From Barnesiella sp. (GTDB lineage: Bacteria; Bacteroidota; Bacteroidia; Bacteroidales; Barnesiellaceae_A), in the NCBI GenBank assembly GCA_045645425.1, contig JAZRIS010000026.1:3785-67784 (forward strand): 64,000 bases of DNA. The letters run 5' to 3'. Below the pieces are notes generated by a model. It worked only from the letters and a program-made list of their open reading frames with translations, was not told where the DNA came from and did no database searches. Below are positions 57,595 to 64,000 of this stretch, one piece after another. Every line of letters begins with the position of its first letter. The stretch's first letter is position 1. A program made the translations under genes and the position numbers.

Positions 57595-58071
57595 CTATAT
57601 TTTCTCTTTTTTTCTACTATCGGCACTATGCTGTGAGTTGTGTCTTATGAGTAGAACAATGCTTGTCAGTTGCGAGGCGAGGCAGAGTGTAACGAACAGA
57701 TACTCCCATTTGTGCGGGCTGTCGCCATTGCCCTCGTTGATGGGTATTGCGTAGGGTATGGAGTCGATGATGTGTACCTCCTTGGTGTGTATGGCAACGC
57801 TGTCGCGACGCGGCTCGACGATGAGGGTGTGCAGTAGCGTGCCGTTTGTTACCGAGGCTCGGCTCGACACTCCGTTGCCTTGTAGGAGGCTTGTGGTGTC
57901 GATAGTGTGGTTGTAGTATGCTTCGCCATTCGATATTATTTCTACAACGGTGTCTTTTATCAAGACAACTTCGCTATGATGTCTTTCTGCGGGGATATAA
58001 GTCCTCTTGTTGCAACTTGTTATTGATAATATCATGCTTGCAACGATAGCGAGGTATGGTAGCCATTTCAT
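57595..58071 (-). CDS. lipoprotein with a C-terminal TM anchor (unimolecular-spanin-like architecture)
   Basis: 158 aa with the lipobox SITSC at the N-terminus, a beta-rich middle, a C-terminal TM WEYLFVTLCLASQLTSIVLLI and a basic tail. Its start overlaps the stop of the M15 gene by 4 nt (ATGA). Confidence 0.4.
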   Translation of the reverse strand: MKWLPYLAIVASMILSITSCNKRTYIPAERHHSEVVLIKDTVVEIISNGEAYYNHTIDTTSLLQGNGVSSRASVTNGTLLHTLIVEPRRDSVAIHTKEVHIIDSIPYAIPINEGNGDSPHKWEYLFVTLCLASQLTSIVLLIRHNSQHSADSRKKEKI

Positions 58072-58475
58072 TGGTATAACACCTCCTTTCTGTTTTCTCC
58101 GTTACGCTTGTAGCTCACGTGTATCCATGCCGGTCCCTGTTTGTTGCCTCGTTCCCATATAAGTTGGTCGAAAGGCAGTTTGAGAAGTATCTCAAATAGC
58201 CTTTTGTTCTCGGCCGGATGTCCTGTGTCGATGTCGGCCGCTTCTCCTATGGTGTGCTGGCTGTTATCTACACCTCCTACGCATTTGTTGAGTCGAGGAC
58301 AACGATAGCCACTGTTCACTCTGATGGGCTTGCCCAAGGCTTCGCGTGCGGGGTCAAGAACATGCTCCACCAACGCTTGCAAGTTCTGTATGCACATCTT
58401 GTCTGGCGTGTTGTCGATGTGCAGTTGGCGAGCTACGGCACTGTCGGTGAGTTCTTCGATAATAAAATATTTCAT
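58068..58475 (-). CDS. peptidase M15 (Peptidase_M15_3 / phage endolysin-type cell-wall peptidase)
   Basis: 135 aa. Zn ligand pattern SQHTIGEAADI (H..D) plus WIHVS (H). No signal peptide. Confidence 0.8.
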   Translation of the reverse strand: MKYFIIEELTDSAVARQLHIDNTPDKMCIQNLQALVEHVLDPAREALGKPIRVNSGYRCPRLNKCVGGVDNSQHTIGEAADIDTGHPAENKRLFEILLKLPFDQLIWERGNKQGPAWIHVSYKRNGENRKEVLYQ

Positions 58476-58702
58476 TCCTCGCCTCCTTTCTTGTCGCGAT
58501 GAATGTGCGTGCGAATGCGGTAACTGTAATCGACCCCAAACAGTGCTCCGGCAAAAGTCACCACTTCGCCAAAAGCTACCAATACGCTGTTGTGTATTTC
58601 GCCTTCAGGAGCCACCCAAAATCCCGAAAAAATAAGCACCAATCCCGCCAAGCACATAATGCAAGCGGTGATGAGGTGTATTGTCATTTTGTCTATTTTC
58701 AT
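58472..58702 (-). CDS. holin-like small membrane protein (two TM helices, charged C-tail)
   Basis: 76 aa. TM1 is IHLITACIMCLAGLVLIFSGFWV, TM2 is VLVAFGEVVTFAGALFGV, and the tail is RIRTHIHRDKKGGEE. Its stop overlaps the M15 start by 4 nt. Confidence 0.45.
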   Translation of the reverse strand: MKIDKMTIHLITACIMCLAGLVLIFSGFWVAPEGEIHNSVLVAFGEVVTFAGALFGVDYSYRIRTHIHRDKKGGEE

Positions 58703-58866: not shown

Positions 58867-59670
58867 ATGGGCTTATTTGGTAATAATGATAGCGAATTGA
58901 GAAGCTTTGAGCAGACAATAGAACGCTTGAAAGTGGAGTATGCTGCACTTGAAGACGAAAACCGACGTAAAGATGCCGAAATAGAACGCCTGAAGACAAT
59001 AGTTGAGGGTATGGGTAGCACTCCCGAAGTTGTGGTGCCTGCTCCTGAAACTGTGCCCGCAGAAGAGCCTGTGTCGGGTGTTGATTGTGCACCGGCAATG
59101 GAGGCTATCAACGCATCGCTCAATGAGTTGAAAGAACAAACGCAGGCTCAAAAGGCATTGATGGACGAGTTTAAAGTATTGTTGGGACATCGTGACCGCC
59201 AAGACGAGAACATGCGTGCCATGCACAAGGAGCTGGAACAATATAAGGGCGACTTTTTTGTCAAGATTACACAGCCCTATTTAAAGGCATTGCTCGACCT
59301 CCACGGCCGTTTTTATGGCACATACACCCATTTCGACCAGCTCGACAATGCCGAGTGCGATTGGGCTGAGTTGTATGGCAACCTGATGCGCGAATTTAAG
59401 AGCGCCATTATGGCCCTGAGCGATAGAGCATACAATGACTTTGGTGTAGAATATTATGAGCCGCAAGAGGGTGAGGAGTTCAACCGTAAGTTGCATCAAC
59501 AACTTCAAGGCGACTCGGTAGATACAACCAACCCCGAATTGAATGGCCGCATCGCCAAGGTGGTATGTGGAGGCTTTATCAATGTCGATACCGAGAAGGT
59601 GGTGCGTTATGCACGCGTGAAAGTCTATAAATACACCGAGGCAACACAAACACCCGAAAACAACGAATAA
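58867..59670 (+). CDS. GrpE-like nucleotide-exchange factor paralog
   Basis: 267 aa. It has an N-terminal coiled coil (ERLKVEYAALEDENRRKDAEIERLK) and an acidic/Pro linker. The C-terminal half parallels GrpE: RAMHKELEQYKGDFFVKITQPYLKALLDL; FGVEYYEPQEGEEFNRKLHQ; GRIAKVVCGGF...VVRYARVKVYK. Confidence 0.55.
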   Translation: MGLFGNNDSELRSFEQTIERLKVEYAALEDENRRKDAEIERLKTIVEGMGSTPEVVVPAPETVPAEEPVSGVDCAPAMEAINASLNELKEQTQAQKALMDEFKVLLGHRDRQDENMRAMHKELEQYKGDFFVKITQPYLKALLDLHGRFYGTYTHFDQLDNAECDWAELYGNLMREFKSAIMALSDRAYNDFGVEYYEPQEGEEFNRKLHQQLQGDSVDTTNPELNGRIAKVVCGGFINVDTEKVVRYARVKVYKYTEATQTPENNE

Positions 59671-59691: not shown

Positions 59692-61284
59692 ATGGCAAAC
59701 GATAAAAGTAGAGCCGTATATGGCATAGACTTGGGTACAACATTTAGTTGTATCTCACAAGTAGATAGATATGATCAAGCAGTGGTACTTCGTAACTTTG
59801 AGGGCGATGCTACCACTCCATCGGTCGTGTACATTGAGTCGGAAAATAACATGATTGTGGGTAAAGAGGCCAAAAACCAGTTGGCTGTCGAGCCCGAAAA
59901 GACTGTTGCCTTTATCAAACGCGAGATAGGTAATGACGAGGCTTTTGACAAGAGCAAGAACACTACTCCCATGCACCTCGACCCCGTTGAAATTTCGGCT
60001 CTTATTCTCAAAAAACTCGTACAAGATGCCAACAACTTGGGCGAAAATCCCGAGCCTATCACCGACGTGGTGATTACTTGTCCGGCCTATTTTGGTAACA
60101 AAGAGCGCTTGCAAACCAAGCAAGCCGGTATCAGTGCCGGTCTTAACGTATTGGCTATCATCAACGAGCCTACTGCTGCCGCTATTTCTTACGGTTTGAA
60201 GGTAGATGAGCGTCGTACTATCCTTGTGTATGACTTGGGTGGTGGTACATTTGACGTTACTATCATTGCTGTCAATGGCGGTGCTATCAAGGTAGTTGCT
60301 ACCGGTGGCGACCACCATTTGGGTGGTGTCGATTGGGATACCGAGTTGGCCAAGTATGTTCTCAATACATTCAACTCGCAAAATGGTACTTCTTACGACT
60401 TCGATTCTCTCTCTCCCAATGCTCGCTATGAACTCTTGCTCAATGCCGAGAACTGGAAGAAGAATCTCACTGCTCGTCAAACCGCCAAAATCAACTTCTC
60501 GTACGAAGGTAAATCGGTTAGCTTTGATCTTCCTCGCGAAACATTCAACGCCATTACCGAGGATCGCTTGAATGAAACTATCGATGCTACTCGCAAGATT
60601 ATTGAAATTGCCGAGGAGAAAGGTTACAAGAAAATAGATGAGATTATACTCGTGGGTGGTAGTAGCAAGATGCCTCAAATCAAGACTCGCGTTGAGGCCG
60701 AGTTTGGCTTGCCTACACACATTACCGACCCCGATGAGTGTGTTGCCAAGGGTGCCGCCATCTTTGCCATGAATGAGGCTTACGATGCAGCGTTGAAGAA
60801 ATCGGAGGAGGAAGGTACAAAAGCTCCCGAACCTCTTATGACCAAACGTACTCGCATTGTCAATGTTACAAGTAAGACCTATGGACTTGGCCTTATCGAC
60901 AACCAAGTGGGTAATATGATTTTTGCCAACACTACCTTGCCGGTGTCGCGTACACGCGTGTTTGAAACCGTGCGCGATGGTCAAACAGGTGTGACACTCC
61001 CCATCTACGAGAGCGACTTTACCGATGAGGAGAAAGACCAAACCGTAGAGGACCGCTTCTGTAACTTGGCTACCGAGGATATATCGGAGTTGAAACTTAC
61101 CGGCAACCATCCCAAAGGTACCGAAATCAAGGTTACGTTCAGCATCAGCGAGGAGGGTATTCTCAGTGTCAATGCTACCCGCGATAGCGACGTTATAGAT
61201 TTCCAATTAAAAGTAGCCGGTGTGAAGAGCGAAGAAGAGTTGAGAAAATCTCAAAACTTCATTGCCAATGCTACTGTCGAATAA
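59692..61284 (+). CDS. Hsp70-family ATPase, short form lacking the helical lid
   Basis: 530 aa with intact actin-fold motifs GIDLGTTFS, DLGGGTFDV and LVGGSSKMP. A beta-sandwich SBD-like region (VTSKTYGLGL...) is present, but the protein ends about 100 aa short of canonical DnaK. Confidence 0.9.
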   Translation: MANDKSRAVYGIDLGTTFSCISQVDRYDQAVVLRNFEGDATTPSVVYIESENNMIVGKEAKNQLAVEPEKTVAFIKREIGNDEAFDKSKNTTPMHLDPVEISALILKKLVQDANNLGENPEPITDVVITCPAYFGNKERLQTKQAGISAGLNVLAIINEPTAAAISYGLKVDERRTILVYDLGGGTFDVTIIAVNGGAIKVVATGGDHHLGGVDWDTELAKYVLNTFNSQNGTSYDFDSLSPNARYELLLNAENWKKNLTARQTAKINFSYEGKSVSFDLPRETFNAITEDRLNETIDATRKIIEIAEEKGYKKIDEIILVGGSSKMPQIKTRVEAEFGLPTHITDPDECVAKGAAIFAMNEAYDAALKKSEEEGTKAPEPLMTKRTRIVNVTSKTYGLGLIDNQVGNMIFANTTLPVSRTRVFETVRDGQTGVTLPIYESDFTDEEKDQTVEDRFCNLATEDISELKLTGNHPKGTEIKVTFSISEEGILSVNATRDSDVIDFQLKVAGVKSEEELRKSQNFIANATVE

Positions 61285-61352: not shown

Positions 61353-63878
61353 ATGGATAAGACACTTCTAAAGCAGAAAATTGCCGAATGGGAGAAGGCG
61401 TGCGACTTCTTTGCATCGCCCGCCATTGCCAAGCAACTTGACAAAGACGAGAAAGAGGCTATTGTGTTCTTATGTAACTTCTGGCGCGATAAAGAGTTTG
61501 ACAAAGAGGTGTGCCAAAAGCGAATAGACCTGCTGAAACATTGCGATAAACTCCACTCCAATAATCGTGAGATTATAGAGAAGAGCAAGACCTTGCGAGG
61601 TATTGCACAGACATTCTATACCAAGGATGCCGCTTCGTTTGACGAGTTTCGCAGGGAATTGGGCTGGACACCCGGCACCAAGAAGACACCTACTCCCGAA
61701 ACAAAGAAAACGCCTGTGCCCACTCCCAAGCCCGACTCTACACCGCAACACGACGAGGCGTTGATTATAACCAATGTACAGAAGTGGTCGCGTTCATTAC
61801 AGTTTCTCAAGAGCGAGGAGATAACACCGCAACTCGATACCGCCGAAATTACTGCCATAGAGGTGTTGAGCGATATGTGGCGACGTCCCACTTTCGATGC
61901 TTCGATGAAAGAGGAGGCTGCCGAGATGGTAAAGGTGTTGGTCAATTCGCACAAACTTCATTCAAATAATCGTGAAATCATCGAGCATAGCAAAAACCTT
62001 TGTGCTGTGGCTCGTAAGATGTATGAGGATAAGAAATCCTTTGATGTATTCAAGAAGGCTCTCGCCGAGTATTATCAAAACAACAAGCCTCCTCGTCGCG
62101 ATATTCCTGTTCCCGAGAAGAAAAAGAAGCCCATACCTCAATCGCCGCATAAAGATAGCGAGTTGATTGTACGCGATGTGCTCTTTGCCGATACTACATA
62201 TAACAACGAGATTATTAAGGACTTTGGTAGGGTACTCTTTACCAATACGCAATATATAGTGCCCCGCTTGTCGGTATCGAGCGACTACTATGGTACCGAG
62301 ACGATTGAGATTATCTTGAAGTATCCCAATGGCGAAACTTGCAACTATGATACCGAAGTAACATTCAACGGTAAGGGCGATTATACATTGTCGGGCTGGG
62401 GTAGCAAGAGTGGTACGTCGTATGCTTCATACGGTTATGTCGAATATACTTTCAAGTGCAAGGGTAAGAAATTGTGGCAGGGTCGTGTGACAATAGGTCG
62501 CGACGCTAACAGTCCCCGCTTGCCCGAAATTTCCACTGTCAAGTTTGGTGCAGTAGATTACGATGGCAATATCAAGGTGAACTTTGGCTCGCCTATTCCC
62601 ACCGGTATTCCCTACTTGAAGCCTCGTATTGTGGTGTCTAACAACTTCCGTGGTGCGGTTACTATCGATATAACCTTTGAATATAAAGATAGGGCTACCG
62701 AGCGTACATCGAGCGATATAAGCATACAAGGCCCCGGAGAATATAATTTGACGGGATGGGGTCGTCGCGATTGTACATCATGGACCAAGAACGAAACCGT
62801 TAAAATCACCTTCAGTTGTGAGGGTAAGGTGCTCTATACCGCACAAGTGAAGATAGGCTCAGGCAGTGGCTGGGGCCCTAAAAAGACCAATAAGACTCCC
62901 TACCGACGCAGTAGTTCGGGCGACTCGTTGTGGGCTCGCTTTGATGACAAGATAAGATCGATAGGCGATAGCCTTGAAGATAGCAGTGAAACAATCACCA
63001 GTATCCTATCGTTCCTTCTTTTCATTATCTTGGTTGTCGGTGTGATATTTGAGTGGATAGATGAGGGATTTGGGGCTGCTCTATTGACCGGTGTGATAGG
63101 CTTCATCATACTATCTATTATTATAGCTGTCATGAGTTATATTATGCCTTTGATAGTATATGTACTGCGATTGGTATTTAAGAATGCTTGGACATTCCTC
63201 ATTGCGCTTATTCTTATCTTTGGCCCATCGATAGCCGGCATTGTGACAGGCGTGGCCAAAGGTGTATTTACTCGTAATGCAAGCAACTTACCCGCCATAG
63301 AAGAGATAGCAACTTCTACTACAACAACCTACTATTGCATTGCCCAATCGGGTGTGAGGGTGCGCCAAGAGCCCTCGGCAAGTGCTGCACAGTTGGGTGG
63401 TTTGCAATACAATGAAGAGGTAGAAGTGTATGAAATAAGAGATGGATATGCCCGCATAGATTATTACGGCAATGAGGCCTATGTAAGCAGCCGTTACCTT
63501 ACCATGGTAGAGGGTGAAGAATTTCTGAAAGAGAATGCTTCTCGCAAGGGCGTTGTGACCCTCAAAAGTGGATTGCAGTATGAGGTGTTGGAAAAGGGTA
63601 AAGGGAAAAAACCTGCCGAGAATAGCGATGTTTTGTGTCGCTATAAGCTCTCGCTGCTCGATGGTACAATAATTGATGATACCTTCTCATCGGATCCTAT
63701 CAAGCTCAATTTGGGAGGTACGATAAAAGGATTTCAGCAAGGTGTGCAGTTGATGAAGGAGGGAGCCAAGTATAAGTTTTATATCCCTGCTTCACTCGCT
63801 TATGGAAGTAAGTCGGTAAGAAATATTCCTGCTCATGCCACGCTTGTTTATGAAGTAGAGTTGGTAGAGGTGTTGTAG
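61353..63878 (+). CDS. multidomain membrane protein: 2 helical repeats + 2 beta-rich repeats + TM bundle + SH3b-like domain + FKBP-type peptidyl-prolyl isomerase
   Basis: 841 aa. The helical repeats share KLHSNNREIIE.SK.L. The beta repeats share G.Y.L.GWG...F.C.GK.L....V.IG. Hydrophobic segments span aa 547-636. The SH3b-like segment is YYCIAQSGVRVRQEPS...EVYEIRDGYARIDYYGNEAYVSSRYL. The FKBP domain is SGLQYEVLEKGKG...IKGFQQGVQLMKEGAKYKFYIPASLAYG...LVYEVELVEV. Confidence 0.7.
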   Translation: MDKTLLKQKIAEWEKACDFFASPAIAKQLDKDEKEAIVFLCNFWRDKEFDKEVCQKRIDLLKHCDKLHSNNREIIEKSKTLRGIAQTFYTKDAASFDEFRRELGWTPGTKKTPTPETKKTPVPTPKPDSTPQHDEALIITNVQKWSRSLQFLKSEEITPQLDTAEITAIEVLSDMWRRPTFDASMKEEAAEMVKVLVNSHKLHSNNREIIEHSKNLCAVARKMYEDKKSFDVFKKALAEYYQNNKPPRRDIPVPEKKKKPIPQSPHKDSELIVRDVLFADTTYNNEIIKDFGRVLFTNTQYIVPRLSVSSDYYGTETIEIILKYPNGETCNYDTEVTFNGKGDYTLSGWGSKSGTSYASYGYVEYTFKCKGKKLWQGRVTIGRDANSPRLPEISTVKFGAVDYDGNIKVNFGSPIPTGIPYLKPRIVVSNNFRGAVTIDITFEYKDRATERTSSDISIQGPGEYNLTGWGRRDCTSWTKNETVKITFSCEGKVLYTAQVKIGSGSGWGPKKTNKTPYRRSSSGDSLWARFDDKIRSIGDSLEDSSETITSILSFLLFIILVVGVIFEWIDEGFGAALLTGVIGFIILSIIIAVMSYIMPLIVYVLRLVFKNAWTFLIALILIFGPSIAGIVTGVAKGVFTRNASNLPAIEEIATSTTTTYYCIAQSGVRVRQEPSASAAQLGGLQYNEEVEVYEIRDGYARIDYYGNEAYVSSRYLTMVEGEEFLKENASRKGVVTLKSGLQYEVLEKGKGKKPAENSDVLCRYKLSLLDGTIIDDTFSSDPIKLNLGGTIKGFQQGVQLMKEGAKYKFYIPASLAYGSKSVRNIPAHATLVYEVELVEVL

Positions 63879-64000
63879 CGCTTTACCCATCATACATAGC
63901 ATTATCGCCCCGCAAGAGAGTTATCTCCTGTGGGGCGATGACATTTATAGCGTTGGTTGCTCTTCTTTGAAATGAGGATATTTACTTGACAAGGTTTTGT

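Follow-up and report, generated by a model that had tools for sequence, protein, structure and literature searches.

A tandem helical domain distinct from the J-domain as a candidate docking module for a lid-less Hsp70 of gut Bacteroidales

J-domain proteins are described in reviews as obligatory co-chaperones of Hsp70 (PMC8215388; preprint 10.1101/2020.01.13.901538). The residues of DnaK that contact the J-domain have been listed, and two of them, R167 and Q378, bind its His-Pro-Asp (HPD) motif, pairing with the Asp (PMC8215388). In Escherichia coli, the djlB-ybeT-ybeU-djlC-hscC locus places a specialised Hsp70, HscC, beside membrane-anchored partners, DjlC and DjlB, that would recruit it to the membrane (PMC8215388). 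Here, we describe a similarly arranged operon with a partner of a different kind. It lies in a 64,000-nucleotide stretch of DNA from Barnesiella sp. (Bacteroidota; assembly GCA_045645425.1, contig JAZRIS010000026.1, positions 3,785 to 67,784 of the forward strand), which we refer to as “the window”, and its three co-directional genes encode a GrpE-like protein, a private Hsp70 and an 841-residue membrane protein that begins with two helical repeats.

J-like domains that lack HPD are known, for example in mitochondrial Pam16/Tim16, where a hairpin with a His at its turn is found in the position of an Hsp70 co-chaperone. The mitochondrial import motor also contains a tether of the Tim44 type, i.e., a membrane-associated non-J protein that holds Hsp70 together with a GrpE-type exchange factor. 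For the Barnesiella operon and its relatives, we establish an internal repeat, the domain family to which it belongs, a conserved gene order, and the loss of J-site residues from the Hsp70. We propose, with a probability of about 0.6 and relying on predicted structures for the contact itself, that the repeats form a non-J docking or tether module for the private Hsp70.

The duplicated domain and its family

The N-terminal part of the 841-residue protein contains an internal repeat that is far above chance, with residues 1–130 and 131–270 aligning at 39% identity over 137 columns (BLASTP, E = 5e-27). The original prediction, made from the letters of the window without database searches, had named these tandem repeats and two accompanying features, all of which are real. 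First, the string KLHSNNREIIE occurs exactly twice in the protein and is invariant between the copies (residues 66–76 and 201–211). Second, each repeat is followed by a Pro/Lys/Thr-rich linker (residues 108–131 and 244–270) with a predicted local distance difference test score (pLDDT) below 50. Only the limits of the repeats shift slightly: the proposed end, position 62078, corresponds to residue 242, while repeat 2 ends at about residue 243. Both units are kept in 26 aligned homologues, as is the motif in the form K-L-H-[SAP]-[SNA]-N-R-[ED]-I-I, with an invariant His; linker 1 differs in length and sequence among homologues.

The single repeat is modeled by AlphaFold2, from an alignment of 120 sequences, with a pLDDT of 96.8 and a predicted template modeling score of 0.87. 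In the model, repeat 1 has five main helices (residues 3–21, 31–46, 51–68, 72–89 and 93–102) plus a short turn at residues 23–26, and the motif spans the end of helix 3 (K66–H68), a three-residue loop (S69–N71) and the start of helix 4. The parts of the protein, and the genes that precede it, are as follows:

58867..59670, + strand: GrpE-like gene, 267 residues, which opens the operon (Pfam GrpE, E = 1.5e-11)
59692..61284, + strand: private Hsp70, 530 residues (Pfam HSP70, E = 2e-103), predicted partner of the repeats
61353-63878, + strand: open reading frame of the 841-residue membrane protein, third and last of the three co-directional genes
61353..61673, + strand: repeat 1, residues 1–107, helical domain (AlphaFold2 model, BLASTP internal repeat)
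61548..61580, + strand: motif copy 1, KLHSNNREIIE, residues 66–76 (exact occurrence in the translation)
61674..61745, + strand: linker 1, residues 108–131, Pro/Thr/Lys-rich, predicted to be disordered (pLDDT <50 at 109–132)
61746..62081, + strand: repeat 2, residues 132–243, same helical domain (BLASTP, AlphaFold2; profile E = 1.0e-33 in the genome of the window)
61953..61985, + strand: motif copy 2, KLHSNNREIIE, residues 201–211 (exact occurrence in the translation)
62082..62162, + strand: linker 2, residues 244–270, Pro/Lys-rich, predicted to be disordered (pLDDT <50 at 246–270)
62163..62912, + strand: two beta-rich repeats, ~residues 271–520, family unassigned (translation; tblastn conservation in 17 loci)
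62991..63260, + strand: hydrophobic transmembrane region, ~residues 547–636, probably three helices (translation)
63348..63503, + strand: bacterial SH3 domain, residues 666–717 (Pfam SH3_3, E = 1.5e-12)
63510..63872, + strand: FKBP-type peptidyl-prolyl isomerase domain, residues 720–840 (Pfam FKBP_C, E = 1.8e-20; FKBP_N, E = 1.2e-07)

The number of transmembrane helices is expected to be odd, because the C-terminal domains are of periplasmic type. The beta-rich modules constitute a second internal duplication, with ~110 residues each (~271–382 and ~391–502) and without a family match. Other members of the family have MORN or Sel1 repeats in place of these modules; in the members whose positions were checked, they come after the N-terminal domain and before the membrane or SH3 part. 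Right after the stop codon of the gene, at 63880–63930, there is a G+C-rich inverted repeat that resembles an operon terminator.

A profile built from 56 repeat units retrieved 155 proteins from among 1.84 billion representative proteins, and in these the helical domain occurs once or twice, nearly always at the N terminus. The domain has no match in Pfam or NCBIfam. Searching the family profile against PDB sequences gave chance-level matches only (the best being collagenase G, with E = 0.0025 over 47 residues), and the best look-alike of residues 1–107 in the ESM Atlas scored 0.61, which is noise. Similarly, a Foldseek search of the single repeat against 350,542 PDB chains returned 64 matches at E ≤ 10, with a best E-value of 1.0, and the two-repeat model found nothing below E = 0.97, although its flexible linker makes it an unfair query. 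The operon and the domain were not found described in the literature. The repeats are an undescribed, unannotated family of helical domains of ~105 residues, without a recognizable solved relative. A known defense system was considered as an identity for the operon and rejected, since no PADLOC model matches any of its three proteins.

In contrast to the constant N-terminal domain, the rest of the family proteins varies. Among 77 members, Pfam assigns SH3_3 to 34, MORN to 18, TonB_C to 7, FKBP to 4, Sel1 to 4 and thioredoxin to 3. The number of copies of the helical domain has its own history. In a tree of repeat units, the first and second copies from the clade of the 841-residue protein group separately; the duplication in this clade is old, because first copies cluster with first copies and second with second. 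In five other lineages, the two copies within a protein pair with each other in the tree, and strongly so, which implies that duplication or gene conversion took place there independently. That two copies were reached several times is consistent with selection for bivalence, e.g., for the holding of two Hsp70 molecules. A variant arrangement is seen in one Alistipes metagenome-assembled genome (L054:5148-9133), where two successive partner genes come after the Hsp70 gene, an additional N-terminal repeat with a beta module standing ahead of the full-length partner gene.

Gene order and the operon Hsp70

At all 21 loci from species genomes, the order of genes is GrpE-like, Hsp70, family protein; these loci come from metagenome-assembled genomes of Bacteroidales, mostly of the ruminant gut. 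Nine divergent members were also checked, four of which follow an Hsp70 gene. Three of the four keep the full order (P0178, P0083 and P0138), and the other (P0061) is preceded by an Hsp70 C-terminal fragment. In sum, the family gene lies directly after an Hsp70 gene in 25 of the 30 loci with usable context, including every checked member with a profile E-value <1e-20. An N-terminal domain that stays constant, beside a constant Hsp70 partner, while the rest of the protein varies is the pattern expected of a docking module.

The system is patchy in its distribution. Among 301 sampled genomes of the order, the domain occurs in one, that of the window itself, and it was not found in two genomes of the same genus. 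In the Hsp70 tree, labels of host families are intermixed at short distances. The system may therefore be mobile or horizontally transferred. A phage-type cassette (holin, M15 peptidase, spanin-like) at 57595–58702 is divergent to the operon and adjacent to it in 9 of the 21 related loci. It was rejected as part of the system: all nine loci belong to the closest clade, and eight of them also share the housekeeping genes alongside, the contig of the ninth being too short to judge.

Over the ATPase and beta-sandwich domains, the operon Hsp70 aligns at 35% identity with the DnaK of the same genome. This alignment extends no further than about DnaK residue 526, which means that the operon Hsp70 lacks the helical lid. 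All 21 Hsp70s of this type retain the catalytic residues D8, K70, E171, D194, T199 and D201. The residues that meet the J-domain have fared differently. At the position of DnaK R167, all 21 sequences have Ala or Gly; at E206, they have A, V, N or R and in no case Glu; at E217, K, R or T; at Q378, a residue other than Gln; at D393, Asn in 20 of 21; and at D477, mostly Ser. R167, E217, Q378 and D393 are all kept in E. coli DnaK, HscA and HscC, and the operon Hsp70s form a single clade (support 100/100) on a long branch apart from those three. Judged by its sequence, the operon Hsp70 has lost the canonical J-site, which argues against service by an ordinary J-domain or by a degenerate version acting at the same groove.

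The changes in this clade extend to the allosteric residues D148, D326 and D393, and six residues are missing at DnaK 286–291, beside the GrpE-signature region; a GrpE-like gene still precedes the Hsp70 gene at all 21 genome loci and at the three complete divergent loci.

A predicted complex between the repeat and the Hsp70

We modeled the operon Hsp70 (from an alignment of 21 rows) with ATP and repeat 1 (120 rows). Three runs gave values of 0.76, 0.73 and 0.76 for the interaction prediction score from aligned errors (ipSAE), and their contacts agree at 96–98%. All three controls, two with an unrelated protein in place of the repeat and one with the Hsp70 replaced, scored 0.00. On the side of the repeat, the predicted interface comprises residues 1–5, 7–8, 11, 28, 30, 62, 65–70, 72, 75–76, 79–80, 83–84 and 86–87, i.e., the motif hairpin and the first helix, and includes H68, K79, K66 and R72. 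On the side of the Hsp70, it comprises residues 208–236, 284–298, 440–444 and 455–458. Mapped onto E. coli DnaK, these are residues 225–246 and 304–318 of nucleotide-binding lobe IIB, and 442–446 and 457 in the outer loops of the beta-sandwich substrate-binding domain (SBD-beta). In the model, the equivalents of DnaK R167, 206–218, Q378, L391, P419 and D477 all remain free of contacts. The sole stand-outs at the Hsp70 surface of the interface are an ESDFT loop and an F-C insertion of SBD-beta, both of which are clade-specific and invariant. The docking of each repeat on the Hsp70 had been suggested as a check in the original prediction; repeat 1 is predicted to dock, but at lobe IIB and the SBD-beta loops rather than at the J-site.

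The location of the interface raises another possibility, namely that the repeats act as a lid in trans, with the helical bundle closing over the outer loops of the beta-sandwich so that clients are trapped only at the membrane. The operon Hsp70 has no lid bundle of its own, the repeat is a helical bundle of lid-like size with predicted contacts to the SBD-beta loops (DnaK 442–446 and 457), and lid structures of Hsp70 account for 3 of the 64 weak matches found by Foldseek. These three, however, have E-values of 5.4–6.6 and query-normalized TM-scores of 0.24–0.33, which is chance level; comparison with 31 DnaK lids in hhalign gave a probability of 0.4% and a score of 12.2; and most of the predicted interface is on lobe IIB, not where a lid sits. 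We reject a relationship by similarity, as the repeats have neither sequence nor fold likeness to DnaK lids, and consider a trans-acting lid improbable.

Several points weigh against a docking module for the Hsp70. Binding is supported by a structure-prediction score. In the calibration of the tool, such a score is reached by 58 of 80 solved complexes and by 2 of 110 mismatched pairs, counts that hold only roughly here, given that the alignments were self-supplied and unpaired and that ATP was included as a ligand. The docked construct was repeat 1 only. Positions of the repeat that lie in the interface are not more conserved than the rest (permutation p = 0.56; 0.24 for the motif side); conservation of the repeat is dominated by its buried core, and its most conserved residue, E33, is outside the interface. 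Clade-specific conserved residues of the Hsp70 make up 10 of 25 positions at the interface versus 135 of 505, which is not significant (p = 0.11). Lastly, five of the nine divergent members have no adjacent Hsp70 gene (P0065, P0157, P0116, the P0150/P0153 tandem pair, and P0130), so that the tie of the domain to Hsp70 is not an exclusive one.

The last three of these points are what would be expected if the domain were a general module for interaction, oligomerization or signaling, with the membrane protein being a client or regulated target of the chaperone pair, or a binder of the GrpE-like protein; a member located behind a Ser/Thr kinase points the same way. Such a module is harder to reconcile with the position of the gene after Hsp70 in 25 of 30 loci, with a complex prediction that is strong, reproducible and zero in its controls, and with the constancy of the N-terminal domain in otherwise variable proteins, which is the pattern of a part that meets a constant Hsp70. 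We regard it as unlikely, though less so than the trans-acting lid. The kinase fusion (P0130, L063:2949-4865) carries its copy of the domain at residues 375–472, in an operon of VWA, PP2C and kinase genes with no Hsp70 gene nearby. At another locus (L065:670-3513), two tandem paralogous genes both begin with the helical domain and lie beside a SusR-like gene, again with no Hsp70 gene nearby.

If the repeats dock the private Hsp70, as we favor, the arrangement might work as follows. The helical domain forms the predicted cytoplasmic N terminus of inner-membrane proteins encoded right after a lid-less Hsp70 and a GrpE-like factor, and occupies the place expected of a J-protein. In the model, KLHSNNREIIE is the tip of the hairpin made by helix 3, the loop and helix 4. 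The face of this hairpin, together with the first helix, is predicted to dock onto the operon Hsp70, with contacts to lobe IIB and to the two outer loops of the beta-sandwich. With two copies, as many as two Hsp70 molecules could be held at the membrane, near the cytoplasmic beta-repeats, with the SH3b and FKBP domains across the membrane. A broader and more tentative proposal, which we hold at somewhat less than even odds, is that this is a new, non-J class of Hsp70 partner domain, present in two copies on an envelope-spanning protein, that recruits an Hsp70 without lid or J-site via lobe IIB and the SBD-beta loops and thereby couples cytoplasmic ATP turnover to periplasmic wall-binding or folding domains. 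The operon would then represent a fourth type of bacterial Hsp70 system, free of J-proteins.

The J-domain question and comparison with known systems

The original prediction had read the repeats as degenerate J-domains, with HSN in place of HPD. This requires consideration, since the operon contains no J-protein, as was correctly stated. The genome of the window (2.14 Mb, 99.7% complete) has one canonical DnaK and a single DnaJ, and a search for further J-domain proteins in it found none. The Pfam DnaJ profile does not match the 841-residue protein at E ≤ 1, nor any of 77 family members at E ≤ 0.001. Compared by hhalign with an alignment of 29 J-domains from Bacteroidota genomes, the family profile reached a probability of 2.8% and a score of 15.9 over 23–24 columns. 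The best local alignment puts K-L-H-S on K-Y-H-P and F-R-G-I-A..Y on F-K-E-A-A..Y, which is the alignment that had been made by eye; it is recovered, but it is too weak and too short to indicate homology. Against 200 column-shuffled J-domain profiles (null score 9.7, standard deviation 1.9), 2 of 200 reached 15.9, a p value (0.01) that is optimistic because column shuffling destroys helical periodicity; a real helical control, the DnaK lid, scored 12.2. On profile comparison, the resemblance is slightly above chance and far too short for homology.

Features expected of a J-domain partner give a similar picture. At the position of the HPD loop, both copies have H-S-N-N, and across the family only the His is near-invariant, with an occasional Pro. 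Some distant members have K-H-P-x-D at the motif, with the Asp one position off, and their Hsp70 partners also lack the arginine at R167 (L061). Membrane-anchored J-proteins of the DjlA, DjlB and DjlC type combine an anchor with a J-domain; the 841-residue protein has a membrane region (~547–636) and lacks the J-domain. The structural check that had been proposed, an AlphaFold2 model searched with Foldseek, yielded five main helices and no J-domain among the 64 matches at E ≤ 10.

It could still be argued that the repeats are true but highly divergent J-domains, in which H-S-N replaces H-P-D and ATPase stimulation takes place at the canonical site formed by lobe IIA, the linker and SBD-beta, the change of R167 to Ala or Gly being compensatory. 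The best hhalign alignment is the one expected on this view, and few shuffled profiles match its score; some distant members have K-H-P-x-D; the operon has no J-protein, and the genome a single DnaJ; and the loss of the motif Asp coincides with that of R167 in the Hsp70. Set against this are the hhalign probability and length, the absence of any DnaJ profile match, a family of 155 proteins that is far smaller than the J-domain family, a model with five main helices and a three-residue loop but no J-domain among its Foldseek matches, the optimistic p value beside the score of the lid control, and a predicted interface that misses all equivalents of the J-site. We consider a divergent J-domain very unlikely. 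The repeats are not J-domains by sequence, by fold or by predicted docking site. What survives of the earlier reading is that the operon would carry its own Hsp70-binding module, in two copies on the cytoplasmic side, for which gene order and the controlled complex prediction argue; the J-domain nature of that module does not survive.

If the docking module is confirmed, the operon offers a natural test of the Hsp70 cycle without a J-domain, in a clade that lacks the J-contact residues and is always encoded with a conserved helical partner. It would also assign a function to an unannotated domain family, and suggest a route by which an ATPase in the cytoplasm of gut Bacteroidales could be connected with SH3b, FKBP, thioredoxin or TonB_C modules in the periplasm. 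Should the repeats be only a client or scaffold, the outcome is a modest one, the annotation of a new domain.

The operon can be compared with several known systems. With the J-domain (PF00226), the repeat shares a helical hairpin whose turn carries a conserved His, the gene slot of a co-chaperone, and a weak local resemblance in sequence. The J-domain, however, has four helices and ~70 residues, whereas the repeat has five main helices and ~105 residues; the three-residue loop of the repeat has no Asp, and neither profile nor fold matches. In addition, the J-domain docks at lobe IIA and the linker, whereas the repeat is predicted to sit at lobe IIB. A published Hsp70/GrpE theme (PMC7159879) was considered as a match and set aside, being a different, GTPase-centered system whose partner has a real DnaJ domain.

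A 2026 review (PMC13580251) describes bacterial “DnaK derivatives” as a largely unexplored chaperone dark matter. The operon Hsp70 belongs to this class, being a paralogue derived from DnaK whose domains are truncated and whose DnaJ-binding features are altered; term searches of the review gave no mention of Bacteroidota or of such a non-J partner.

With the Tim44-type tether, the likeness is one of analogy only. The 841-residue protein has no sequence or fold relation to Tim44, and no translocation channel is evident; the family described here is bacterial, and its members have periplasmic SH3b, FKBP, thioredoxin or TonB_C ends.

The E. coli HscC system shares the layout of a specialised Hsp70 beside a membrane-anchored partner and differs in four respects: (i) DjlB and DjlC have true J-domains, whereas the 841-residue partner has none; (ii) HscC keeps R167, E217, Q378 and D393, whereas the operon Hsp70 has lost all four; (iii) the lid of HscC is shortened and HscC is thought to be independent of GrpE, whereas the operon Hsp70 is lid-less and accompanied by its own GrpE-like gene; (iv) the operon Hsp70 clade is on a long branch of its own, separate from HscC as well as from DnaK and HscA.

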